A stretch of 64,000 nt of DNA from Gammaproteobacteria bacterium (GCA_026706895.1 JAPOXW010000015.1:28475-92474); one strand, 5' to 3'; numbered from the stretch's first letter, positions 4,064 to 23,162 are shown. Notes: generated by a model not told the origin, from the letters alone. Numbers and translations: made by a program.

Positions 4064-4154
4064 TGGCGGAGAGGGAGGGATTCGAACCCTCGATGGGGTA
4101 TCAGCCCATACTCCCTTAGCAGGGGAGCGCTTTCAGCCACTCAGCCACCTCTCC
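4064..4154 (-). tRNA. tRNA-Ser (anticodon GCU), CCA encoded
   Basis: The reverse complement reads GGAGAGG-TG-GCTGAGTGGCTGAAAGC..CTCCC-CTGCTAA-GGGAG-(long variable arm TATGGGCTGATACCCCATC)-GAGGG-TTCGAAT-CCCTC-CCTCTCC-G-CCA. This is a class II cloverleaf with a 7-nt anticodon loop carrying GCT. Confidence 0.9.
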
Positions 4155-10288: not shown

Positions 10289-10341
10289 GCCCCAATCATA
10301 CCCGTTTGACAGATGCTCTCGCATGCTTTACATTTCTCAAA

Positions 10342-10364
10342 GTGTATTACAGAGTGTAATACAC
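10342..10364. promoter_or_regulatory. inverted repeat GTGTATTACA-GAG-TGTAATACAC, candidate operator of the nucleotidyltransferase/HEPN pair
   Basis: Perfect 10-bp arms with a 3-nt spacer. It ends immediately before the AGGAGG (10365-10370) that precedes the ATG at 10376, in the divergent pncC intergenic region. Confidence 0.5.
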
Positions 10365-10375
10365 AGGAGGATTCC

Positions 10376-10909
10376 ATGAATACCCCTATCATCAGTTTCC
10401 GCGTACGCCAGGATCAGCAAGCCGATGTGCGCGAATTGGTCAATTCCATCAAAGACGACCCGGATTTGATCGGCCTAGTCCTGGAATACGTTCGCAATGC
10501 ACCTCGGCCAAGGCACGAGGCCGCAGCGGCAGATGAGAGTCTTGGCCCATTCCGCAACGCGAAAGCTGCCCTTTCCGTTCTGACCATGAATCTGGCCATC
10601 GCATTCCAGCCCGATGCCATTTTCCTGTTCGGCAGCCGCGCATGTGGTACCGAACGCCCGGATAGTGACTTCGATCTGATGGTGGTCACCCCGGACGACC
10701 AGCCCCTCGACTACCTGACGGCCCGGAAACCCATTTCCGGGTGTGGTGTCCCGGTGGACGTAGTCCCATGCCAGTATTCTGCGTTTGAGAAGAATCGGAA
10801 CGTGCCCGGCATGCTCCCTTACGCGGTCGACCGGGAAGGAAAATTGCTGGACGCGCGCGTTGATGGCCCGTTCTGGAAACGCTATCGCGAGATGTTCCCC
10901 CTGCGATGA
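10376..10909 (+). CDS. nucleotidyltransferase-domain protein (MNT-type antitoxin candidate) with N-terminal extension
   Basis: IFLFGSRACGTERPDSDFDLMVV matches the GS-x9-12-DxD minimal nucleotidyltransferase motif. Start is set at the ATG 5 nt after AGGAGG. The stop overlaps the next ORF (ATGA). Confidence 0.65.
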   Translation: MNTPIISFRVRQDQQADVRELVNSIKDDPDLIGLVLEYVRNAPRPRHEAAAADESLGPFRNAKAALSVLTMNLAIAFQPDAIFLFGSRACGTERPDSDFDLMVVTPDDQPLDYLTARKPISGCGVPVDVVPCQYSAFEKNRNVPGMLPYAVDREGKLLDARVDGPFWKRYREMFPLR

Positions 10910-11316
10910 CCTCTCCGCTCGTCCTGGGATTTCTGAAGGCTGCCGAACGGGACATCGCCGGCATCGAGCGCCTCCTTCCAGATCTCCCAGACCTGGCAGC
11001 ATTCCACGCCCAGCAAGCCGTAGAAAAACTCGCACGCGCCGTGCGCCTGCACGAAGGACTCCCGGATCTTCGTACCCACGACATCACCCGAATTACCGAA
11101 CAACTAGCCCAAGAACACCCTCTCAGGAAAAGCTTCATCAAACTTGGCAGCTTAACTGGAGCGGCAACCGCCTGGCGTTATCCAGATGCCGCAGGCAAAT
11201 TCCCGAAGACTCCCGAACCTCGTGAAATTCAGGCGGCTCTCAAGCAGATAAAAAGCACTGAGGCCGAAATTCGCGACTGGCTCTCGGCTCCGCGGTCCTC
11301 CTCCGCAAACCTATAG
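10906..11316 (+). CDS. HEPN-domain protein (toxin candidate)
   Basis: 136 aa, all-helical. AAFHAQQAVEKLARAV and the ..LRTHDITRI.. segments resemble Pfam HEPN proteins that pair with nucleotidyltransferases. Translationally coupled to 10376-10909. Confidence 0.55.
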   Translation: MTSPLVLGFLKAAERDIAGIERLLPDLPDLAAFHAQQAVEKLARAVRLHEGLPDLRTHDITRITEQLAQEHPLRKSFIKLGSLTGAATAWRYPDAAGKFPKTPEPREIQAALKQIKSTEAEIRDWLSAPRSSSANL

Positions 11317-11932: not shown

Positions 11933-12412
11933 ATGAACCCGAGTGCCAAAAAATCCGAGGCCGCGCCCGATTCGCCTATGCGAACTGCCCCGCTTCCGCC
12001 GAAATTTGATAGACTCAGTGTCATGAACGCGCTTCGAGCCGCCGCATTCAGTGAAGACCAAGCCACTGTTCTCGTCGAGACCCTCGGCGAAGCCCACCTC
12101 TGCTTAGCGACAAAGGACGACCTGGACCAAGCATTCAGCACACTGCGCAGCGACATCAAGACATCAGAAACCGGCATCCGTCGGGACATGGAGAAAATGG
12201 AAACCGGCATCCGCCATGACATGGAAAAGATGGAAGCCGGCATCCGCCACGACATGCTGGAGATGAAATCCGACCTTCGCGGCGAGATACAGGGGCTGCG
12301 TGGTGAGATGGAAGCCCGGTTCAACAAACTCTCTTGGCAAATCATGGCCAGCACAGGCGGAGCGACCATTGCCGGCACCAGCATTCTCGGCTTATTGATT
12401 CTCTTTAAATAG
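11933..12412 (+). CDS. DUF1640 / CCDC90-like coiled-coil protein with C-terminal membrane anchor
   Basis: 159 aa. AGGAGGA lies 5 nt upstream. Contains the repeated ETGIRxDMEKM heptad-like units and the terminal TM segment GGATIAGTSILGLLILF typical of DUF1640. Confidence 0.65.
   Translation: MNPSAKKSEAAPDSPMRTAPLPPKFDRLSVMNALRAAAFSEDQATVLVETLGEAHLCLATKDDLDQAFSTLRSDIKTSETGIRRDMEKMETGIRHDMEKMEAGIRHDMLEMKSDLRGEIQGLRGEMEARFNKLSWQIMASTGGATIAGTSILGLLILFK
12167..12265 (+). repeat. three in-frame tandem 33-bp units inside the DUF1640 gene
   Basis: The units are gaaaccggcatccgtcgggacatggagaaaatg / gaaaccggcatccgccatgacatggaaaagatg / gaagccggcatccgccacgacatgctggagatg. They encode ETGIRRDMEKM-ETGIRHDMEKM-EAGIRHDMLEM. 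Confidence 0.9.
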
Positions 12413-12956
12413 ACCTCTTCATGCCCGAAAGATCTAGGCAAACCATGTGCGTCTATCCAATGGGCTACGGGGCATTGGCGCCCGAAAAACACAAGTCTTG
12501 AAGGCAGGTTGTGACCAAACCCCGCCGGAATGTTCAACCTCCCCGCCACCCATACAAGGTGAACTTAAAAGATATTTTAATTGCCTTTGCCGTTGGTGCT
12601 GGAATATCTACCGTTTTCTTCAGCATCGTCACCGTCATGCTCTTAGCCGGCGGAATAATAGATTTCTCCTGATTCTCGGCATCCGGCTCCTAAGATAGTC
12701 ACTTCGCCCATACCCGGCCCTGTCGCCAAGGCCACCTGCTTGCACTCAAACCCGTCGAAATGTCCAGCAGATCAGTACCTCATTGTTAAGTTTGTTAGAA
12801 TTGTGCCATACAGTCATATTGCGAGGGATGGCTGGATGCAGATCGGTGATTGCGATCGCCTGATTGGCTTGAAACAAGGCGGCTACGGAGCGGCGGACGC
12901 CGGCATATCCTGGCCGTATTAAACGTTCTGCCCGCGTACCCTCGATACTGTTGAAC

Positions 12957-14129
12957 ATGGATGGAAGAGTTTCGGAATCAGGGCACAAGATGACTTCAGG
13001 GTCGAGCACGCCCGACAATTCATCGGCTGCGCCCGTTTTCGTCACCGGCGCGGCCGGGCATGTGGGCGCCAATCTCGTGCGCCGGCTACTCGACGAAGGT
13101 ACCCGGGTCCGGGTGCTGCTGAGACACGAAGAGAACAACGAAGCGCTGGAAGGCCTTGAGGTTGAACGCGTGCTCGGCGACCTGCGGGACTTGAATTCCG
13201 TCAGGCGTGCGGTCGAGGGCTGCCGAGGCGTCTATCACTGTGCGGCCAAGGTTTCGACCATCGAGGGAAACCACGCCCATCGTCGGGAAATATACGAATG
13301 CAACGTTCTCGGCACCCGCAACATGCTGCGGGCGGCACGGGAAGCGGAAGCTGGCCGGGTGGTCGTGACGGGTTCTTTCAGCGCGGTCGGATACAACCTG
13401 GATGACCCCTCCGCCCCCAGCGACGAGACGATGCTGTTCTACCCCATGGAACGCACGATGCCCTACGAGCGCAGCAAGACGCTCGTCGAACACGAGTGCT
13501 GGCGCGCCGCGTCAGCCGGGCAGGATGTCTTGGTCGCCACGTGCTGCGCAGTTGTGGGAGGCAGCGACTTTCTCCCCTCGCGACTGGGCAAGTCCATGTG
13601 CGCCTATGCCAACGGCAAGCTCCGCGCTTACGTTGATGGCGGCTTCGAATTCGTCGCGGCGCGGGACATCGTCGAAGGGCACCGGTTGTGCATGGACCGC
13701 GGCCGCTCGGGCGAAAAGTACATCTTCAGCAGCGAGTACAAGACCATCTCCGAGATCCTGGACTTGTGGGAGGAAGCCTCCGGCATTCCGCGCCCAAACC
13801 GGCGGATTCCGGTCCTCGCAATGCTCGCTTTCTCGGAAGCCGCAAGTTTTTACCTGAGCCGGTTCCATCCGAGTTTCCCCCAGCGTTTCACTCCCGGCGC
13901 CATCCGCCTGCTGCAAAAGTGCCGCCATGCCAACAACAGCAAGGCGAAAGAGGAACTCGGCTACCGGCCGACCAGCATCCGCGCCGCGGTCCACGAAGCC
14001 TACGCCTTCCACTACCGCCGCAACGCGATCACGAACCCGGACGCGAAACCCCCGTGCACGGACGGCACGGGACGGGTAGAAGAACCCATGCCGGATCAAG
14101 GCACACCCATCACTTCGGACGGAGGCTGA
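12957..14129 (+). CDS. sdmB: NAD(P)-dependent 3-beta-HSD/epimerase-family reductase, SdmB-like (sterol C-4 demethylation)
   Basis: The VFVTGAAGHVGANLVRRLL Rossmann motif, an extended SDR fold, and the gene immediately upstream of a Rieske oxygenase match the SdmA/SdmB pair described in Methylococcus. The start is ambiguous (TTG 12951, ATG 12957, ATG 12990). Confidence 0.6.
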   Translation: MDGRVSESGHKMTSGSSTPDNSSAAPVFVTGAAGHVGANLVRRLLDEGTRVRVLLRHEENNEALEGLEVERVLGDLRDLNSVRRAVEGCRGVYHCAAKVSTIEGNHAHRREIYECNVLGTRNMLRAAREAEAGRVVVTGSFSAVGYNLDDPSAPSDETMLFYPMERTMPYERSKTLVEHECWRAASAGQDVLVATCCAVVGGSDFLPSRLGKSMCAYANGKLRAYVDGGFEFVAARDIVEGHRLCMDRGRSGEKYIFSSEYKTISEILDLWEEASGIPRPNRRIPVLAMLAFSEAASFYLSRFHPSFPQRFTPGAIRLLQKCRHANNSKAKEELGYRPTSIRAAVHEAYAFHYRRNAITNPDAKPPCTDGTGRVEEPMPDQGTPITSDGG

Positions 14130-14130
14130 A

Positions 14131-15228
14131 ATGGACTCAATGACAAGCCCGCCTCCCGGCTTCGACGAGGCCAGCAACTTGCGACAGAAAGCGCGCGCCG
14201 CGGGCATGGACCCGGATTACTGGTACGCGGTCGAAGAAGTGCGCCGGGTCAAGCCGGGGACCGTGGTCGAGGTTGTTTTCTGGAAGCGTGCCATTGCGCT
14301 GTTCCGGGCGAAGGACGGCTCGTTTCATGCGGTCGAGGACCGCTGTGCCCATCGCCAGCTCAAGCTCTCCCTCGGCCATGTCGAGGACTGCCGGCTCGTC
14401 TGCGCCTACCATGGCTGGCAGTACGACGGAGGGGGGCAACGTGCCGGGGGGCCTCGCGAGCACCTCGGGGAAAACTGTGAGAACGTCTCGATCCGATCCT
14501 ACCCCGTGAAAGTCCGTTACGGCCTGGTCTGGCTGTTCCCCGGAGACCCGGAAAAGGCAGAGTCGCGGCAGATCCCGGACATCCCCGAGCTCGAGGGGCC
14601 GGACCGATGGGCCTGCGTCCCGCTCACCTTCACCTGGTCGGCCCACCACTCGATGGTGATCGACAACGTGAGCGATTTCTCCCACGCCCATCTGCACCGT
14701 CAATACCGCCCGTTCGTCGGCGCCACCCTCACCCGCTGCAAGACCATCGGCGACGACGTGCATCTTTCCTACGACACGCAGGTCGGACGCGGGCGCATCT
14801 CCGGGCTGTTCGTCGACCACAAAAAGCTCGACACCAATCACATGGATCTCTGCTACCAATACCCCTACCAGTGGTCGAACACCGATGACGCGATCAAGCA
14901 CTGGCTTTTCGTCCTCCCGATCGACGAACGGACCACCCGGACATTCTTCCTGTTCTACTTCAAGTCGCTGAAGATCCCCTTGCTGCCAATACACTTCCCC
15001 CGTCTCGCCATGACCGCGGTGATGAAGATTTCGAACCGTGTACTCATCGGTCCCCTGCTCCGCCAGGATCAATATGCGCTCGAAGGGGAGCAGGAGGGTT
15101 ACGAGAAACACTGGGACGCCCTTCCCGTCGAGTTCAACCCGGTGGTCGAGGCTTTCCAGGACGTGACCGTGCGCAAGTGGCGCGAATACCTGGCGCGCAA
15201 GGCGGAGAACGGCAGCGCTTATGCCTGA
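14131..15228 (+). CDS. sdmA: Rieske [2Fe-2S] non-heme iron oxygenase, SdmA-like (sterol C-4 methyl oxidation)
   Basis: Rieske motif CAHRQLKLSLGHVEDCRLVCAYHGW (CxH..CxxH). The VIDNVSDFSHAHLH segment lies where the mononuclear-iron ligands sit in this superfamily. GGAGG precedes the ATG, which is 1 nt after the sdmB-like stop. Confidence 0.65.
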   Translation: MDSMTSPPPGFDEASNLRQKARAAGMDPDYWYAVEEVRRVKPGTVVEVVFWKRAIALFRAKDGSFHAVEDRCAHRQLKLSLGHVEDCRLVCAYHGWQYDGGGQRAGGPREHLGENCENVSIRSYPVKVRYGLVWLFPGDPEKAESRQIPDIPELEGPDRWACVPLTFTWSAHHSMVIDNVSDFSHAHLHRQYRPFVGATLTRCKTIGDDVHLSYDTQVGRGRISGLFVDHKKLDTNHMDLCYQYPYQWSNTDDAIKHWLFVLPIDERTTRTFFLFYFKSLKIPLLPIHFPRLAMTAVMKISNRVLIGPLLRQDQYALEGEQEGYEKHWDALPVEFNPVVEAFQDVTVRKWREYLARKAENGSAYA

Positions 15229-16315
15229 ACTGCCCTTCTCGCTGGCCGCGCTGTCCGGCGGCACCCTGCTCGACGCGGCAGCCATGATGCTGGCCTTCTT
15301 CGGCTTCCTGTTCCTGGGTTCGATGCTGTTGCCCGGACGCCGGATTGCGGGCCCGGACTACGATGGAAAATCGAGGGTCTACAGGAGCAACGGCCTCGCC
15401 CTGTTCCTGCTGACCATGATCGTGGGAGGACTTGCCCAGATTTCCGGCTGGTTCTCCCTTTCGGTGCTGCATACCCACTTCCTCGCCCTGTTCGTGGTGG
15501 CGAACGTGTTCGCGTTTGCTTTTTCCGCCTTGCTGTACCACCAAGGCACCCGGACCCAGGGCGATTCCCCGAGGGGATTGGAGGGCTTCTTCTACGGCGT
15601 GGCGGGCCACCCGACCTGGCTCGGGGTGGACCTGAAGTTCTTCAGCTACCGCCCCTCCCTCATCGGCCTCGCATTGTTCAACGTCTCGTTCGCCGCCGTG
15701 CAGTACGAGACCTACGGCGAGTTGACCCTGGCGATGATGCTGTACCAGGCTTTCACCTTCCTGTACGTCCTCAACTACTTCCACTTCGAACACGGGATGA
15801 TCCACACCTGGGACATCGTCAGCGAGCGCTTCGGATGGATGCTGGTCTGGGGAGACTACGTGCTGGTGCCGTTTTTCTATTGCCTCGCCGGCTGGTGGCT
15901 GGTTCACGCAACCGAGCCCCTGCCCCCCGTCGCGGCCGTCGCGATCACCCTGCTGTTCGTCTTCGGCTTCTGGGTCTTCCGCGGCGCCAACGGGCAGAAG
16001 CACCGTTTCAGGCGCGACCCCCGCGCCACGATCTGGGGAAAGCCCGCCGAGTCCCTGGACGGGCGCCTGCTGGTCTCCGGATTCTGGGGGATCGGGCGGC
16101 ATCTCAACTATACCGGCGAGATCTGCATCTACCTTTCGTTCGCCCTGACCGCCGGACTCGCATCCTGGGTTCCCTACCTGCTGCCCGCGTGGCTGGCGGG
16201 GCTGCTGTGGCACCGCTCAAGACGCGACGATCGCCGCTGCCGCGCCAAGTACGGCGAACTGTGGGAGCGGTACACGAAGCGGGTACGTTTCGCGATGTTG
16301 CCGTTCGTCTATTGA
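15221..16315 (+). CDS. ERG4/ERG24-family sterol reductase (most likely C-14 reductase)
   Basis: 364 aa polytopic membrane protein. The C-terminal signature is LLVSGFWGIGRHLNYTGEI ... HRSRRDDRRCRAKYGELWERYTKRVRFAMLPFVY. Overlaps the upstream stop by 8 nt and sits next to CYP51. Confidence 0.8.
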   Translation: MPELPFSLAALSGGTLLDAAAMMLAFFGFLFLGSMLLPGRRIAGPDYDGKSRVYRSNGLALFLLTMIVGGLAQISGWFSLSVLHTHFLALFVVANVFAFAFSALLYHQGTRTQGDSPRGLEGFFYGVAGHPTWLGVDLKFFSYRPSLIGLALFNVSFAAVQYETYGELTLAMMLYQAFTFLYVLNYFHFEHGMIHTWDIVSERFGWMLVWGDYVLVPFFYCLAGWWLVHATEPLPPVAAVAITLLFVFGFWVFRGANGQKHRFRRDPRATIWGKPAESLDGRLLVSGFWGIGRHLNYTGEICIYLSFALTAGLASWVPYLLPAWLAGLLWHRSRRDDRRCRAKYGELWERYTKRVRFAMLPFVY

Positions 16316-16341
16316 GAACGGGAGATGGGAAATCTGACGAT

Positions 16342-17730
16342 ATGACCGCGGTACGCTCCACCCCGCTTTCGCCGCAAGGGACCCGAAGCGTCCCCGAGGT
16401 CGCGGGCCGGTGGCCGCTGATCGGCCATCTGCTGGATTTCCAGAAGGACCCGGTCGCGATGCTGCGGCGCGGCTGGCGCGAGCAGGGTGAGCTCATCCGG
16501 TTCCGGCTCGGTCCCCGCGATTTCTTCCTCTTCACCGGGCCCGAAGCCCACGACTTCTATTTCCACGCACCCGAAGACCAGCTCAGCGCCAAGGAGGTCT
16601 ACCAGTTCACGGTGCCCATCTTCGGGCGCGGCGTGGCTTACGACACCTCCCCCGAACTGATGGCCGAGCAACTGGGGTTCCTGTACCCGGCGCTCAGCGA
16701 AACCGCGATGCGCCGGTTCGCCCGCATCATGTTCGAGGAGACCCGGCAGTTTGCCGAGGACCTCGGCGAGAGCGGGGAAGTCGACCTGCCCCACGCGATG
16801 AACGAACTCACCGTCAAGATCGCCAGCCGCTGCCTCATTGGAGAGGAAGTCCGGGCCCAGCTGGACGCGGGGTTCGCCGAGGCTTACCACGAACTGCAAA
16901 ACGGCATCAACACCCTGGGCTTCTTTTTCCCCTATCTGCCGATTCCGGCGCATCGAAACCGCGACCGGGCCCGGCGAAAAGTGGCCAGGCTCTTCAGCCG
17001 GATCATGGCGGAACGCCGGCGGACCGAGGCCCGGCCCGACGATTTCATGCAGACGCTCATGGATGCCCGGTACAAGGACGGCCGCGCCCTGAGCGACGAC
17101 GAGATCACCGGGATCCTGCTGACCGCGTTGTTCGCGGGCCAGCACACCAGCGCGGTACTCGCCACCTGGACCCTCCTGGAGCTCCTGGGGGACCCCCCCT
17201 ACCTGGACCGGATCCGGGACGAAATGCAGGAAACCTACCGCGAGCCGGGAGCCATCAGCTTTGATACCCTCAAGCATCAGGTGACGCTGGAGCATGCCAT
17301 CCGCGAGAGCGAGCGGCTGCACCCGCCGCTGATCCTGCTGATCCGCAAGGTGCTCAAGCCCTTGCGCTACAAGGATCATGTCGTGCCGACCGGCGCCATG
17401 GCCATGGTGTCGCCGGCGGTCGCCCACCGGTTGCCTCACCTGTTTGCCGACCCGGACCGCTTCAATCCGGACCGGTTCGCCCCGCCTGCTTCCGAGAACA
17501 GGCAGCACCACTACGCCATGATCAGTTTTGGCGGCGGCAAGCACCGGTGCATCGGTGAGCATTTCGCTTACATGCAGTTGAAAGCAATCTGGACCGTGCT
17601 GTTCGACCGCTTTGATTTTCAGCCCAGCACCGAGTTTCCCGAACCGAATTACGGCAGCTGGGTGACGGGCCCCAGGGAACCCTGCCGAGTCCGTTACCGC
17701 CGCCGCCCGCAGGCCAGCATCTTCCAGTGA
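16342..17730 (+). CDS. cyp51: sterol 14-alpha-demethylase cytochrome P450 (CYP51)
   Basis: YQFTVPIFGRGVAYD (B-prime helix CYP51 signature), the I-helix FAGQHTS, and the heme loop FGGGKHRCIGEHFA. Colinear by eye with Mycobacterium tuberculosis CYP51. No ferredoxin domain is fused. Start is at the ATG of MTAVRST; an in-frame TTG at 16312 is an alternative. The longer ORF-track start (15835) lies inside the reductase gene. Confidence 0.9.
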   Translation: MTAVRSTPLSPQGTRSVPEVAGRWPLIGHLLDFQKDPVAMLRRGWREQGELIRFRLGPRDFFLFTGPEAHDFYFHAPEDQLSAKEVYQFTVPIFGRGVAYDTSPELMAEQLGFLYPALSETAMRRFARIMFEETRQFAEDLGESGEVDLPHAMNELTVKIASRCLIGEEVRAQLDAGFAEAYHELQNGINTLGFFFPYLPIPAHRNRDRARRKVARLFSRIMAERRRTEARPDDFMQTLMDARYKDGRALSDDEITGILLTALFAGQHTSAVLATWTLLELLGDPPYLDRIRDEMQETYREPGAISFDTLKHQVTLEHAIRESERLHPPLILLIRKVLKPLRYKDHVVPTGAMAMVSPAVAHRLPHLFADPDRFNPDRFAPPASENRQHHYAMISFGGGKHRCIGEHFAYMQLKAIWTVLFDRFDFQPSTEFPEPNYGSWVTGPREPCRVRYRRRPQASIFQ

Positions 17731-20700
17731 GCCTCTCCCCTTCCCGGCATTACGACGTCGCGATTGTCGGCGGGGGACCAGTCGGCAGTGTGTGCGCGCT
17801 CGCCCACGCGCGAAAAGGCGCCCGGGTTGTCCTGCTCGAAGCGAGCCCCGAGGCTTCCAAGCGACTGGCGGGAGAATGGTTGCACCCCCCCGCCGTGCGG
17901 ATACTGCGCGAGATCGGGATCGGGCTCGACACGCAGCCTCCCACCGGCGCAGGCAACGGGTTCGTGGTGTACCCGGAAGACGACTCGGAACCGATCATAC
18001 TTCCCTATCCGGATGGCGCTCACGGATTGGCCTGCGAGCACGCGGTACTCGTCTCGCATCTGCACGAAGCGATCGAGAACGAATCGAGCATTGATTTTAT
18101 TTTCAATGCACAAGTCCGCGAGGTCGTAGACGGGCGAATCACTTTTACTCGCAACGGGTCCGACGAGTCCGTCGCAGCTGCGCGGATCGTCGGCGCCGAC
18201 GGTCGGGGTTCGGTCGTGCGTCGATCACTGGGCTTGCCGACGAACCAGAAAACCTGCTCGTGGATGGTGGGCGTTCTGGTCGACGAAGTGACGTTGCCGC
18301 TGGAAGGTTATGGATACGTGTTGGGGGGCGGACCCGGGCCAGTCCTCATGTACCGCTTGGGGGAGCGTGGCGTACGCATCGTCGTTGATGTCCCGGCGGA
18401 TCGTTGGACGCCCCGGGATCGGATTGGATTCCTGTTGGACTCGTATGCCGGTTGGTTGCCGGAATCAGTCCGACCCGCGTTTGTTGATGCGCTGCGGGCG
18501 GGACAGTTCCGCACTGCCAGCAATAAATTGAGGCTGCGTGTCACCTATGGAAGCCCGCGCCGGGTGCTGATCGGCGATGCGGCTGGACACTATCACCCCA
18601 TGTCGGCGGTCGGAATCACCCTTGGTTTCGGTGATGCGCTTGCACTCGCCGAGAACGGGGACTTTCGCGACTTTGCCAAGAAGCGCTTCCAAGCGATCCG
18701 TGCCCCGGAGTTCCTCGCCATGGGACTCTACGAGGTCTTTGCCGATCATCGGACCGAGGTGGTGGCCCTCCGGCATGCGGTCTACCGAGGCTGGCGAGCA
18801 AGTTCTGCGATGCGCGACCGGACCATGCGTTTACTCGCCTGTGAAAACACATCGGTCGCCCACCTGAGTTCTGCTTTTTTCACGACGATGGCCCGAGCGG
18901 TTGCCGGAGAAATCCCGCGGTCCTTCGACAAACTTGCCTGGCATCGGGCCCGAGACACCTTCAATTCACTCTCGGGCCGCATCAAATGGCTGCTGCGGGG
19001 TGCCCGGATGTTGCACCGGGCGAGAAGCACGGGCGGAGGAGAGGACGAGCAAATTCGGGACGTCTGGTCCCACACGTTCCTGGTCTCCATCCCGTCGAAA
19101 GCCGACGACTCGCAGCCCGCCCGCCCGTGGGCGGTCGAGTCGCCCGATGCCGGCCCGGCATTGAAGAGTGCAAGCGAGCGCCTGCTGGGTCTCCAGGATG
19201 GGGACGGCGCCTGGGAAGGCGAGATGGTCTGGTGTCCCATGCTCACCGCGCAGTACGTGCTGCTGCACTACGCCATGGAGCAGCCGCTCGATCCCGACCG
19301 ACGCCGGCGCGTGCTGCGGTCTTTCGAACGAACCCGTCTCGAAGGCGGCGCATGGGGCCTGCACGAGCACCCGCCCCCCAACCTGTTCGTCACCACGCTG
19401 GTTTACGTCGCGGCAAGGCTGCTCGGTGTCGAGCGGGACGATCCTCTGCTCGAGCCAGCCCGGCGATTCCTGCAGACGGAAGAAGTCCTTGGCATTCCGA
19501 GCTGGGGAAAATTCTGGCTGGCGCTCCTCAATCTCTACGACTGGCGCGGAATCAATGCCATCCTGCCGGAACTGTGGAGCCTGCCACGCTGGATTCCGCT
19601 GCACCCTTCCAACTGGTATTGCCATACCCGGCTCATCTACATGGCGATGGCGGCTGTCTATTCACATCGATTCCAGATGCCCGTCACGCCGTTGATCGCA
19701 TTGCTGCGAAAAGAGCTGTATCCCGAGGGCTTTGCCAACGTCGGCTTTTCCGCGGGCCGCAATCGCCTGCGAAGCGCCGATCTCCACATGCGGCCTAGCG
19801 TGTGGCTTCGGATCGGGTACGGGTTTTCTCGGTTGTTCGAGCGATTCCATGGCAAACACCTGCGTGCTCGGTGCCTGAACGCGATCACCGAGCGCATCAG
19901 ATGGGAACTGCGAACGACCAATCACACGAGCATTTCTCCGGTCAGCGGGCTTCTCAATATCCTGGCCTTATGGCTGCGCGACCCGGACGATCCCGACAGT
20001 CGCCAGGCACTCGCGAAGTTGGACGACTGGATCTGGGAAGACGAGGAATACGGGGCGCGGGTCACCGGGGCAAGAAGCATTTCGTGGGATACCGGCTTCG
20101 CCCTGCAGGCATTGGAATCCATGTCCGAACTCGACTTGAACCCTGAAGTTCGAAACGCCCTCCAACGCGGGGCCGACTTCCTGGAAACGCAACAAATCAA
20201 GACCAGTTTCGAAGGGTTCCATGAGGCTTTTCGAAACGACCCCAAGGGTGGCTGGTGCTTCGCCGGGCAGTGGCATGGCTGGCCGGTCACCGACTGCACT
20301 GCGGAAGCGGTGCTCGGGATTATCGCGGCCCACCGCGAGGCGACGAACACGACCATGCTCAAGGAGGCGATTCCCTTCATGCTGCGCGGCCAGAACCGCG
20401 ATGGCGGCTTCGGCAGCTATGAAGCACAGCGCTCCGCAATCGGACTCGAATGGCTGAATCCGGCCGAGATGTTCGGCGAGTCGATGACCGAGCATTCCTA
20501 TGTCGAGTGCACCGCATCCTGCCTCGCGGCACTCTCCGCCTGCAAGAAGCACTTTCCGGACATCACGGACCAAGCAGTGACGGACGCGATGTCGCGAGCC
20601 GGCGCCTGGCTTCGCCGAACCCAGGCGAGCAATGGGTCGTGGCGCGGCGTATGGGGGGTTCAGTTCATCTACGGCACCGCTTTCGGGATCAAGGGCCTGC

Positions 20701-21185
20701 TCGCCGCCGGAGCCCGTCCCGGCGACCCGGCGCTGCGCCTGGCCTGCCGATGGCTGCTGGACCGTCAGCGTGGAGACGGGGGATGGGGCGAGCACTACAG
20801 CGGCTGCTTCACCGGCCGATACGTTGCACATGAGGAAAGTCAGGTCATCCAAACCGCATGGGCATTGATTGCGCTGCTTGAGGCGGAGGATTCGAACTGG
20901 GCCGCGATCTCGCGAGGCGCCCGGTTCCTGCTCGACACCCAGAATGCAGATGGGGCATGGCCCAGGCAAGACATGGCCGGAGTCTTTTTCCGCACGGCCC
21001 TGCTGGACTACGTCCTGTATCGGCAGTATTTCCCCCTGCGCGCACTCGGCCTTTACGAACAGCGACGTCGAGCCCGGCTGGAGCTGGCAGCCTCTGATTC
21101 CCATACCGCCGGTGCAACGGCGGACGGCACGATGCCCCTGGCGGCGACATTGGAAGAGCCGCGCAGCGCACACGCCCCTTCATGA
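17727..21185 (+). CDS. fused squalene monooxygenase (N-terminal ~430 aa) - oxidosqualene cyclase (C-terminal ~680 aa)
   Basis: The N-terminal part has DVAIVGGGPVGS (FAD), GEWLHPPA, GADGRGSVVRR and GDAAGHYHPMSAVGITLGFGDAL, colinear with eukaryotic squalene epoxidase motifs. The C-terminal part has repeated QW-type motifs (QDGDGAWEGE, QNRDGGFGSY, QASNGSWRGVWG, QRGDGGWGE, QNADGAWP), WYCHTRLIYMAMAAVY, and the oxidosqualene-cyclase catalytic motif GWPVTDCTAEAV (Asp codon at 20292). One uninterrupted frame. The GTG start overlaps the cyp51 stop (GTGA). Confidence 0.85.
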   Translation: MSLSPSRHYDVAIVGGGPVGSVCALAHARKGARVVLLEASPEASKRLAGEWLHPPAVRILREIGIGLDTQPPTGAGNGFVVYPEDDSEPIILPYPDGAHGLACEHAVLVSHLHEAIENESSIDFIFNAQVREVVDGRITFTRNGSDESVAAARIVGADGRGSVVRRSLGLPTNQKTCSWMVGVLVDEVTLPLEGYGYVLGGGPGPVLMYRLGERGVRIVVDVPADRWTPRDRIGFLLDSYAGWLPESVRPAFVDALRAGQFRTASNKLRLRVTYGSPRRVLIGDAAGHYHPMSAVGITLGFGDALALAENGDFRDFAKKRFQAIRAPEFLAMGLYEVFADHRTEVVALRHAVYRGWRASSAMRDRTMRLLACENTSVAHLSSAFFTTMARAVAGEIPRSFDKLAWHRARDTFNSLSGRIKWLLRGARMLHRARSTGGGEDEQIRDVWSHTFLVSIPSKADDSQPARPWAVESPDAGPALKSASERLLGLQDGDGAWEGEMVWCPMLTAQYVLLHYAMEQPLDPDRRRRVLRSFERTRLEGGAWGLHEHPPPNLFVTTLVYVAARLLGVERDDPLLEPARRFLQTEEVLGIPSWGKFWLALLNLYDWRGINAILPELWSLPRWIPLHPSNWYCHTRLIYMAMAAVYSHRFQMPVTPLIALLRKELYPEGFANVGFSAGRNRLRSADLHMRPSVWLRIGYGFSRLFERFHGKHLRARCLNAITERIRWELRTTNHTSISPVSGLLNILALWLRDPDDPDSRQALAKLDDWIWEDEEYGARVTGARSISWDTGFALQALESMSELDLNPEVRNALQRGADFLETQQIKTSFEGFHEAFRNDPKGGWCFAGQWHGWPVTDCTAEAVLGIIAAHREATNTTMLKEAIPFMLRGQNRDGGFGSYEAQRSAIGLEWLNPAEMFGESMTEHSYVECTASCLAALSACKKHFPDITDQAVTDAMSRAGAWLRRTQASNGSWRGVWGVQFIYGTAFGIKGLLAAGARPGDPALRLACRWLLDRQRGDGGWGEHYSGCFTGRYVAHEESQVIQTAWALIALLEAEDSNWAAISRGARFLLDTQNADGAWPRQDMAGVFFRTALLDYVLYRQYFPLRALGLYEQRRRARLELAASDSHTAGATADGTMPLAATLEEPRSAHAPS

Positions 21186-21248: not shown

Positions 21249-22892
21249 TCACGGCGACGAGTCTCGCAGATCAATGAGCCAGCTCTCTGGTATCACCTTG
21301 TCGTAGACCTCGGGGAAGGCGTTTCCGGCAGCGTACTTGCTGCGCACATCCCGGTAGAGCCGATGCTCGAACATATGCTCGAATTCGGTGCGGGTCATAC
21401 ATATGTCGGCGTAGAGCATCTGATAGCCACCGCGCTCACGAACAAACTTCTCCAGGCGGCGCATGGTTGGCACCTGGTCGTAGTTGCCGGCTTTGGCTTT
21501 CGTCGGGATGCCATAAATGCCGAGGTTGACGTACATCTGGCTGCTGCCGTTGTTGGCCGGATTCCGCAAAAAACCCTCGTTCGCGCCGTGGTCGAACAGG
21601 CGCACCGGGTCGACCCAGAGTGGGTAGATGTCGAAGAGCCCGTCGCTGAGGCGGACAGACTCGGCAAGGGACCCGATCGGCACCATGATGTCCTGCACGA
21701 CGCGGTTTTCGAAAGCTCGGCGCCGGATCTCCCGGGTGACTGTCAGTTTCAACAGAGAGACTTTCGGCGCGCCCATCCAAGCCCACAAATGGCGATACCA
21801 GGGGGTGTTGGCAAAAGGAATGAGGTCCTTGAGCTGGAAGTACACCGAAGGCGTGTGGCGGTGGAAATAATGGCGGGCGGGAATGTACTCGCTGGCGGCC
21901 CCCGTCTTCAGGCACTGGGCAACATGGCTGTAGAACCACGGCTTGTAGTAATCATTGATGCGATTGATGCGTGCGCCGCGCGGGGGCGTCGCGCAGTCGC
22001 CCGCGAGGATGACGCCGGATTCCCGGGAGAAGACGAGTCCTTCTATGAAACGCGGGGCGTCCGGGGAGGCGGCAAGCTCCTCAAGCCGGGCGCAGAAAGC
22101 GTCGATCGAATGGAACGGTTCGTAGTCGAGCTTGACGTGCGACCGAACCGGGACAATGCGAAGTTCGACACTCACGAGGAAGCCGAGGGTGCCATGGGAA
22201 CAGGGCAAGGCGTGGAAAAGATCGGCGTTCTGGTTACGCGTGGCACGGACAAGCTCCCCGCTGGCGGTTACGATCTCGAAGGCCTCGACCGATTCGAACA
22301 GGCAACCCTCTCGGTGGCTGGTCGTCGCAATGCCGATACCCATGCACAAGCCTCCAACGGTGAGATCGTCCATCTCGGCCTGGACGCTCAATGCGAACCC
22401 CTTGGGGACGAGAAAGGCAGTGATGTCGCCCATGGTGACCATCGGCTCTGCACGAACGATCAGACGCTTCTCGTCAACCTCAAGGATCTCGCAAAGGTTG
22501 ATGGAAACCTGCTGCATGTCCTTCTTGAACTCGGCGGAGCGTACCGACATCGTTTGCCATGGCTTGCGTGCGGTACACATGAATTTGCCCGTGGCAGCGC
22601 AAGCCTGCACTTGGGCTTGAATCACCCGGACAGCATTGTCGTGTTCGATGCCGGTGTTCCTCAACCTCCGGCGGATCCGTTTTCGGATGCCCTCGACATG
22701 ACGGTAGACGAAGCTGGCAGGAACCGCAAAACCGGCGATGACGAGCCCGCGGTTTCTGGTCAGGAAATTGTCGAGGAACTTCGGGAGTCGCACAGGCAGA
22801 GCTTCGGAAAAATTGAGGATAAGGTACTTGATTTGACGAAACCAAAGGCCATGCGGACTTTCCGGTGCAATTAGTGCACATGGAAAAGTCAT
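21249..22892 (-). CDS. FAD-linked delta-24 sterol reductase (DHCR24/DWF1-like)
   Basis: Long colinear similarity to human DHCR24 read by eye: CTARKPWQTMSVR.., INLCEILEVDEKRLIVRAEPMVTMGDITAFL, DDLTVGGLCMGIGIATTSHREG, YYKPWFYSHV, YIPARHYFHRHTPSVYFQLKDLIPF, FPEVYDKV. The first ATG is at 22892; the ORF-track start at 22913 is TTG. Confidence 0.85.
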   Translation of the reverse strand: MTFPCALIAPESPHGLWFRQIKYLILNFSEALPVRLPKFLDNFLTRNRGLVIAGFAVPASFVYRHVEGIRKRIRRRLRNTGIEHDNAVRVIQAQVQACAATGKFMCTARKPWQTMSVRSAEFKKDMQQVSINLCEILEVDEKRLIVRAEPMVTMGDITAFLVPKGFALSVQAEMDDLTVGGLCMGIGIATTSHREGCLFESVEAFEIVTASGELVRATRNQNADLFHALPCSHGTLGFLVSVELRIVPVRSHVKLDYEPFHSIDAFCARLEELAASPDAPRFIEGLVFSRESGVILAGDCATPPRGARINRINDYYKPWFYSHVAQCLKTGAASEYIPARHYFHRHTPSVYFQLKDLIPFANTPWYRHLWAWMGAPKVSLLKLTVTREIRRRAFENRVVQDIMVPIGSLAESVRLSDGLFDIYPLWVDPVRLFDHGANEGFLRNPANNGSSQMYVNLGIYGIPTKAKAGNYDQVPTMRRLEKFVRERGGYQMLYADICMTRTEFEHMFEHRLYRDVRSKYAAGNAFPEVYDKVIPESWLIDLRDSSP

Positions 22893-23162
22893 GGCGCGGC
22901 AAGCACTCGGCAAGGCGTACCGCGAGGGGGTTTCTATGCTTCAATTGTACGACGTGTTCCCCGGGGGCATCCGAGCAATGATCTGAGAAGATGATCCGGG
23001 GTGAAACCCGATGCCGCCCGCACCGCGAAACACTGCCACCCACGAAACACCAAGTCGCAAGCCACTGCCTTGCCGGTGCAAGGACTGTCGTTTCAGGTTC
23101 ACCCCGGGCCTCGCCGACAGCTTTCCTGAGAGTGTCAAAAATTTGTCAAAATAGCCAGCATC

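Follow-up and report, generated by a model that had tools for sequence, protein, structure and literature searches.

A squalene epoxidase-oxidosqualene cyclase fusion gene in a gammaproteobacterial sterol operon: integrity, junction and predicted bifunctional product

Organization of the fused gene

The window analyzed here is a stretch of 64,000 nucleotides (nt) from a Gammaproteobacteria bacterium (GCA_026706895.1, JAPOXW010000015.1:28475-92474), and all positions are counted from its first letter. It possesses a single gene in which a squalene epoxidase (SE) and an oxidosqualene cyclase (OSC), two consecutive enzymes of the sterol pathway that build its first ring system, are joined in one polypeptide. 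The SE-OSC fusion is genuine; it was already reported as MsbE in 2020, is common in sponge-symbiont bacteria and is only modestly new. What is new here is a map of the junction, which holds no true linker, an unfused sister operon, and some evidence for several independent SE-cyclase and SE-squalene-synthase fusions. The features of the gene, including the flavin adenine dinucleotide (FAD) motifs read from the sequence, are as follows.

17727..21185, plus strand: fused SE-OSC gene, orthologue of MsbE, 1152 codons and a stop, GTG start
17727..19121, plus strand: SE module, residues 1 to about 465, with FAD-binding and substrate-binding domains and C-terminal helices (402-435, 440-448)
17769..17786, plus strand: FAD motif GGGPVG (GxGxxG), residues 15-20
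Residues 156-159, plus strand: FAD motif GADG
18573-18599, plus strand: FAD motif GDAAGHYHP, residues 283-291
19083..19151, plus strand: fusion junction, residues 453-475 (VSIPSKADDSQPARPWAVESPDA), the one stretch of coil that separates the final SE helix from the OSC's first
19119..21071, plus strand: OSC module, residues about 465-1115 (SQHop_cyclase_N/_C, TIGR01787, TIGR03463)
20286-20288, plus strand: V854, product-determining position 453 in human numbering, from the HMMER alignment to 1W6K
20292..20306, plus strand: DCTAE catalytic motif, D856-E860, from the same alignment
21072..21182, plus strand: variable, probably disordered C-terminal tail, residues 1116-1152 (conservation 0.21, 61% gaps; predicted local distance difference test, pLDDT, <50 from residue 1124)

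No internal stop was found across the 1152-codon frame in the open reading frame (ORF) listing. The gene is translationally coupled to the upstream CYP51-type P450 gene, its GTG start overlapping the TGA stop of that gene (ccaGTGAgc; shared GTGA). In the N-terminal part Pfam identified FAD_binding_3 at residues 9-308 (85.6 bits) and SE (PF08491) at residues 155-391 (74.2 bits against a cut-off of 20.1). The C-terminal part showed SQHop_cyclase_N (PF13249) at residues 480-773 with 171.8 bits and SQHop_cyclase_C (PF13243) at residues 786-1111 with 181.1 bits, along with the NCBIfam model of squalene/oxidosqualene cyclases, TIGR01787 (504.7 bits; cut-off 322.7). An earlier sequence-only reading of this DNA had proposed one 1152-amino acid (aa) frame without stop or frame change, an N-terminal epoxidase with FAD motifs, and a complete C-terminal cyclase with QW repeats and DCTAE. 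The domain matches, the GxGxxG, DG and GD fingerprints, the cyclase motifs and the genome survey below agree with it on each point, and so confirm a covalent fusion of two complete enzymes.

Integrity and conservation of the fused frame

Relatives of the protein were searched among 5.8 billion proteins. At least 120 clusters among the matches listed carry both the SE and the cyclase domains; all 120 listed are 68-92% identical to the window protein and 1107-1181 aa long. A genome scan in which each GTDB species was represented by a single genome yielded 529 related loci, and the best 80 of them were analyzed. All 80 gave one continuous tblastn high-scoring segment pair from residue about 1 to at least 1120, with no frame change and 64-92% aa identity, and many of these intact loci sit on closed long-read chromosomes. 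The ratio of nonsynonymous to synonymous substitution rates (dN/dS) among nine close relatives was 0.126 in the SE core, 0.223 in the SE tail, 0.235 in the junction and 0.101 in the OSC. These low values show that both halves and the junction are under purifying selection.

The squalene epoxidase half

Among 121 aligned sequences the FAD-motif residues G15, G17, G20, D158, G159, G283 and D284 are invariant. The N-terminal part matched human squalene monooxygenase (SQLE) in a sequence search of the PDB (6C6N, E ~1e-21). For structure comparison an AlphaFold2 (AF2) model built from the 121-sequence alignment was used (pLDDT 74.6; predicted template modelling score, pTM, 0.65); a model from a 21-sequence alignment (pLDDT 51, pTM 0.35) was set aside as unusable. 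Foldseek aligned the modelled SE part to human SQLE 6C6R with a template modelling (TM) score of 0.81 and a root mean square deviation of 3.1 over 439 columns for a 451-residue chain, followed by p-hydroxybenzoate hydroxylase (TM 0.75). The human SQLE chain includes a C-terminal membrane-binding helical domain (PMC6327030), and the model, at medium confidence (pLDDT 74.6), matches the SQLE fold including this domain. No transmembrane segment was predicted in the fusion protein, the maximum Kyte-Doolittle hydropathy, KD(19), being 1.27, and the helix at residues 412-435 is cationic with a net charge of +6. The two features together fit a monotopic, interfacial protein.

The junction of the two halves

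Residues 431-480 comprise the peptide RARSTGGGEDEQIRDV...SKADDSQPARPWAVESPDAGPALK, in the place where the sequence-only reading had put a dedicated linker of about 50 residues rich in Gly, Asp, Ser and Pro. Alignments to unfused enzymes give another picture, with the seam of the two ancestral genes at about residue 465. A stand-alone SE of 477 aa (P0210), found in a search of 1.84 billion protein representatives, aligns without gaps to window residues 1-465 with 58% identity and thus covers the supposed linker. P0210 is encoded in an unfused operon of the sponge type on a related contig (L081), where only 5 nt separate the SE stop from the GTG that starts a 666-aa OSC. This OSC is 75% identical, its residue 3 aligning at window residue 465 and the alignment running to residue 1114. 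Because the two alignments meet at residue 465, the segment 430-480 represents two native termini joined end to end, and no separate linker is left. Judged from these alignments, the SE's native C-terminal tail spans residues 392-465, and from about 465 onward the sequence is the OSC's native N-terminus. Compared with L081, the window protein is short of ~12 residues at the SE end, together with the SE stop, and of 2 residues where the OSC begins. The missing ~12 ancestral residues mean that more than a read-through of the stop codon took place.

The AF2 model shows helices at residues 377-395, 402-435 and 440-448, and the first OSC helix at 476-488. Between them, residues 453-469 form a coil of low confidence (pLDDT <50). 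The spacing across the seam is conserved: GDAAGHYHP and WEGEM lie 213 aa apart in 66 of 78 sequences, within a range of 210 to 217. S454 is invariant and, along with R466-P467 and PDAGPAL, belongs to the strongly conserved positions around the junction.

The cyclase half

The C-terminal part matched human OSC 1W6K by phmmer with E = 1e-133, and its modelled structure aligned to human OSC with a TM of 0.79 in Foldseek. D856 aligns to the Asp of the human VSDCTAE motif. It is invariant in the 121 sequences, as are C857, E860 and V854. C928, which corresponds to the human VECTS motif, is likewise invariant, and so are H633 and Y898; all of these, together with C857, align with human OSC residues. 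Five QW-type motifs (Q..G.W/F) were found at residues 490, 889, 966, 1014 and 1072. Position 453 in human numbering is Val in lanosterol synthases and Ile in cycloartenol synthases (PMC4919349), and among the bacteria that Wei et al. tested, V453 went with lanosterol production without exception (PMC4919349). As V854 of the window protein occupies this position, lanosterol is the most likely product.

The sterol operon and its surroundings

Five co-directional genes, packed closely or overlapping, make up the operon (12951-21185), and the fused gene closes it; the order is SdmB, SdmA, ERG24, CYP51 and fusion. The other genes of the operon and the features around it are as follows.

12951..14129, plus strand: SdmB-like NAD(P)-dependent sterol C-4 demethylation protein (msbA equivalent), first in the operon; Pfam Epimerase and 3Beta_HSD
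14131..15228, plus strand: SdmA-like Rieske 4-methylsterol monooxygenase (msbB equivalent); Pfam Rieske and VanA_C
15221..16315, plus strand: ERG4/ERG24-family integral-membrane sterol C-14 reductase (msbC equivalent); PF01222, 239 bits
16342..17730, plus strand: P450, CYP51-type sterol 14-alpha-demethylase (msbD equivalent); PF00067, 209 bits; ATG at 16342
21249..22913, minus strand: convergent vanillyl-alcohol oxidase (VAO)-type FAD oxidoreductase; only PF01565 FAD_binding_4 detected, PDB matches weak
10313-10909 and 10906-11316: nucleotidyltransferase/HEPN pair, toxin-antitoxin-like, at the 5' edge of the island
11933-12412: CCDC90-like ORF, at the 5' edge of the island
4067-4154, minus strand: tRNA gene, the only Rfam match in the window

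The first two products scored under the cut-off of 600 of their NCBIfam models, with 299 bits for SdmB (NF052578) and 406 bits for NF052579. The assignment of the P450 to CYP51 rests on the published operon (PMC7074536, PMC9531527); by Pfam it has no ferredoxin domain. The same gene order recurs among the 80 loci, SdmB being syntenic with the fusion gene in 66 and SdmA, ERG24 and CYP51 each in 68, with 67-95% identity.

The sterol genes form an island between cinA-recA-recX-alaS and mutS, where they interrupt the usual cinA-recA...mutS neighbourhood, and the rest of the window is housekeeping. The convergent flavoprotein is possibly a DHCR24-like sterol side-chain reductase, as far as its family match goes. 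It was found in L002, L004 and L005 and is absent from L001 and L003, and counts as an accessory gene whose presence in the island varies. Close relatives differ in the operon's 3' flank as well: the window has only the flavoprotein there, while L004 has a sterol methyltransferase (SMT), an FA_desaturase-family gene and the flavoprotein.

Relatives and distribution of the fusion

Over ~21 kb, recA and mutS flanks included, the window DNA is ~90% identical to Candidatus Porisulfidus/Chromatiales metagenome-assembled genomes (MAGs) from sponges (L001, L003, L004). By this similarity the host is probably a sponge-symbiont gammaproteobacterium related to Candidatus Porisulfidus. The other ~70 loci come nearly all from sponge metagenomes. 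Their hosts comprise Binatia, Nitrospirales, Nitrospinaceae, Acidimicrobiia, Bryobacterales and Vicinamibacterales, along with Opitutales, Rhodothermales, Longimicrobiales, Thermodesulfobacteriota and Alpha- and Gammaproteobacteria. Clustered at 50%, the sponge family is reduced to a single representative.

For 11 of the 80 genomes, most of them Acidimicrobiia, no SdmB, SdmA, ERG24 or CYP51 gene was found within 10 kb of the fusion gene (L019, L020, L029, L036, L038, L046, L047, L051, L061, L073, L079). The fusion gene thus also moves, or is kept, without its operon partners. One of these genomes, the alphaproteobacterial sponge MAG L046, lacks the four upstream operon genes and has an IS-type transposase ORF (integrase-core-like, by eye) directly downstream of the fusion gene (L046:13440-14326), which fits gene mobility. 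Another genome, L077, has SdmB and SdmA nearby, with ERG24 and CYP51 missing.

Candidates for larger fusions were also encountered. In the MAG Candidatus Versatilivorator vitaminiformans (L078:10001-14530) the SE-OSC frame runs stop-free into Sterol_MT_C and Methyltransf_11 domains; from its sequence, the product is possibly a trifunctional SE-OSC-SMT protein of ~1500 aa, or else the result of an assembly error. The SMT lies in the same frame after a stop codon in L039 and overlaps the stop of the fusion gene in L004. Candidate CYP51-SE-OSC triple fusions in L039, L072, L065, L070, L057 and L060 were rejected. Their long upstream stop-to-stop frames are out-of-frame read-through of CYP51 and encode Arg/Pro-rich nonsense in GC-rich DNA.

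The unfused operon mentioned above (L081:4450-11440, ENA ERZ24894576 ctg49556l) has the order SdmB, short ORF, SdmA, CYP51, SE and OSC, and no ERG24. In neighbour-joining trees without support values its OSC nests inside the fused clade and its SE is sister to all fused SEs, so that its unfused state may be ancestral or a secondary split. Six more SE-OSC fusion families with 39-49% identity were found on metagenomic contigs (P0194, P0197, P0198, P0199, P0206, P0208). In rough neighbour-joining trees these divergent fusions interleave with unfused enzymes, a weak hint at sequence level that SE-cyclase fusion may have arisen repeatedly. Apart from these, two proteins, P0273 (1137 aa) and P0300 (1194 aa), have an SE fused to a squalene/phytoene synthase domain (SQS_PSY), and P0300 contains a cyclase-like fragment between the two.

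Proposed function and alternatives

With good confidence the gene is read as encoding a bifunctional, monotopic membrane enzyme which would convert squalene through oxidosqualene to, most likely, lanosterol, and which came from the end-to-end fusion of adjacent genes. The N-terminal FAD-dependent SE (residues 1 to ~465) would convert squalene to (3S)-2,3-oxidosqualene. In the C-terminal OSC (residues ~465-1115), D856 of the DCTAE motif would protonate the epoxide and cyclization would follow, lanosterol being the predicted product. Removal of the C-14 methyl group, reduction of the Δ14 bond and loss of a C-4 methyl group would follow through CYP51, ERG24 and SdmA/SdmB, so that the five-gene operon would lead from squalene to C-14- and C-4-demethylated sterols. 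The fused gene may have arisen from once adjacent, nearly abutting genes by loss of the SE stop with a few surrounding codons. From such an origin it follows that the tether would be the C-terminal membrane-helix tail of the SE with ~20 residues of coil. We infer that this tether would fix a 1:1 ratio of SE to OSC and put both active-site entrances on one membrane leaflet; the hand-over of oxidosqualene would then be local, with less escape or over-epoxidation.

Several points weigh against this reading. The top NCBIfam match of the protein, TIGR03463 (osq_cycl), reached 733 bits, under its curated cut-off of 851. No assay of any enzyme of the fused family was found in the literature searched, most subscription journals lying outside that search. 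True channelling of oxidosqualene is plausible, at somewhat less than even odds; the predicted structure lends it no support. The remaining points concern residues of the two active sites and are taken up with the alternatives on which they bear.

The alternative that survives best, while still improbable, is a bifunctional enzyme which makes a product other than lanosterol, such as parkeol, cycloartenol or another protosteryl-derived triterpenol for a specialized metabolite of the sarasinoside saponin type. It draws on the other two specificity positions of the cyclase, A782 and H850, where lanosterol synthases have T and C or Q; these residues keep the lanosterol product a prediction. They also match only in part the cycloartenol-synthase set (Y and H), so the triad A782/H850/V854 is mixed, H being the cycloartenol-synthase-type residue at position 449. 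Moreover, the orthologous msb locus was proposed as the source of the 30-norlanostane core of sarasinosides (PMC7074536). However, among the bacteria tested V453 was by itself a perfect correlate of lanosterol production (PMC4919349), sarasinosides themselves derive from lanosterol, and the operon occurs in many sponges and phyla not known for saponins.

It is less probable still that the gene is fused at the DNA level while two proteins are made, by internal initiation near the junction or by proteolytic cleavage. Residues 453-469, predicted to be disordered, would be accessible to proteases, and position 455 is Met in 61 of 81 homologues. In the window protein, however, this position is Ile, and a search between residues 425 and 500 found no ATG or GTG in frame that has a Shine-Dalgarno-like motif. 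The conserved junction length, S454, R466-P467 and PDAGPAL suggest a functional tether, and selection would not keep the fused frame in at least 10 phyla if separation were required.

Very improbable is the view that only one half is catalytic, the other, for instance the SE, being a degenerate membrane anchor or regulator with epoxidation taking place elsewhere. It begins from human SQLE, where mutation of Y195 or Q168 abolishes more than 90% of the activity (PMC6327030): the two residues align to F79 and H53 of the window protein, and the eukaryotic SE mechanism is therefore not simply transferable. It also has in its favour that a stand-alone SE is found as well on some sponge-symbiont contigs, the whole-genome shotgun project LXNJ01 containing both P0210-type and fused proteins. 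Yet F and H are found in all 43 fused sequences, and among 16 unfused bacterial SE representatives F is present in 15 and H in 16. The pair is common to fused and nearly all unfused bacterial SEs and is hence a trait of the clade, neither specific to the fusion nor a sign of decay; going by these sequences, bacterial SEs may have a somewhat different active-site arrangement. In dN/dS the SE core comes out as low as the OSC, none of the FAD fingerprints varies, and no second SE gene was found in the window or the operon.

Finally, an assembly, indel or base-calling artefact which merged two genes and hides a true stop or frameshift near nt 19,100, a concern of the sequence-only reading, is practically excluded: one indel could in principle bridge the 5 nt of an L081-like spacer, but all 80 independent MAGs analyzed, which differ in sponge, assembler and phylum and include closed long-read chromosomes, have an intact frame and a junction of nearly constant length, the 120 clusters listed are all full length, the junction is under purifying selection, and the loss of the ancestral SE C-terminus goes beyond mere stop read-through.

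The preferred reading of a bifunctional SE-OSC can be extended. The tether might be of use rather than merely tolerated, fixing the membrane-entry faces of SE and OSC on a shared membrane patch where oxidosqualene is handed over without equilibrating with the bilayer; the self-contained module might have enabled the spread of the operon by horizontal transfer to at least 10 phyla in sponges; an SMT might have been added to it, as in L078; and fusion might have occurred more than once. This extension as a whole is considered unlikely.

Bacterial sterol synthesis matters for how sterane biomarkers are interpreted, the sponge-biomarker debate included, and for the origin of sterols in eukaryotes. 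If the predicted activities are true, a natural single-chain enzyme from squalene to lanosterol would offer metabolic engineering a convenient building block and would provide a clean system in which to ask whether tethering aids the hand-over of a membrane-dissolved intermediate.

Comparison with known systems

Earlier papers have already reported the SE-OSC architecture and its occurrence among sponge symbionts, and the suggestion of the sequence-only reading that the architecture was possibly undescribed does not hold. The closest known system is the msb locus (GenBank MT026193), which Mohanty et al. 2020 described from a gammaproteobacterium living in the sponge Melophlus sarasinorum as a symbiont (PMC7074536). 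Its five genes, msbA (NAD(P) oxidoreductase), msbB (Rieske), msbC (reductase), msbD (14-demethylase) and msbE, have the same order as those of the window. MsbE likewise combines in one polypeptide an SE at the N-terminus and a lanosterol-type cyclase at the C-terminus, and was annotated, by sequence only, as bifunctional with the lanosterol-type Val (PMC7074536). A protein deposited under 'uncultured bacterium' (P0001, QIJ55911.1, 1153 aa) shares 92% identity with the window protein and, from this similarity, is probably MsbE. The difference of ~8% indicates another strain or species, and no exact copy of the window protein was found in the protein/contig collection. Brown et al. 2023 also met such proteins and trimmed "fused SMO/OSC homologs" from their data set (PMC10070321).

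Kelly et al. 2022 described an ERG24-CYP51-LSS 'CSG' operon in 115 of 537 MAGs from Ircinia sponges, covering 10 phyla, and inferred horizontal transfer, with an omega of 0.17 for the whole LSS gene (PMC9531527). The core order of this operon, TM7SF2/ERG24-CYP51-LSS/ERG7, is that of the window, and the 'DFR' and hypothetical genes at its 5' side correspond to the SdmB-like and SdmA-like genes. Kelly et al. name the last gene LSS/ERG7 and do not discuss its epoxidase half; their LSS alignment of 3765 nt is of a length that fits the fused gene (PMC9531527). Like the fused family described here, the CSG operon is spread over ~10 phyla under strong purifying selection. The 3' flanks differ, the window having the convergent VAO-type flavoprotein and CSG operons having SMT or FDFT1.

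In Methylococcus capsulatus, SE and OSC are separate neighbouring genes (MCA2872/MCA2873), whereas the window has one chain. Both this organism and L081 resemble the window in the two enzyme families, in the order of SE followed by OSC and in the operon partners. The human enzymes are more distant, SQLE (6C6N/6C6R) being 22% and OSC (1W6K) 34% identical to the respective halves, with the same folds. FAD motifs, DCTAE and V453 are common to the human enzymes and the window protein, and both human enzymes are monotopic membrane proteins. They are, however, separate proteins, and SQLE has an N-terminal regulatory domain and the Y195/Q168 pair. Other sterol-pathway fusions, the CYP51-ferredoxin of M. 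capsulatus (PMC7947880) and the SE-squalene synthase proteins P0273 and P0300, share with the window protein the joining of pathway members in one chain and combine other partners.

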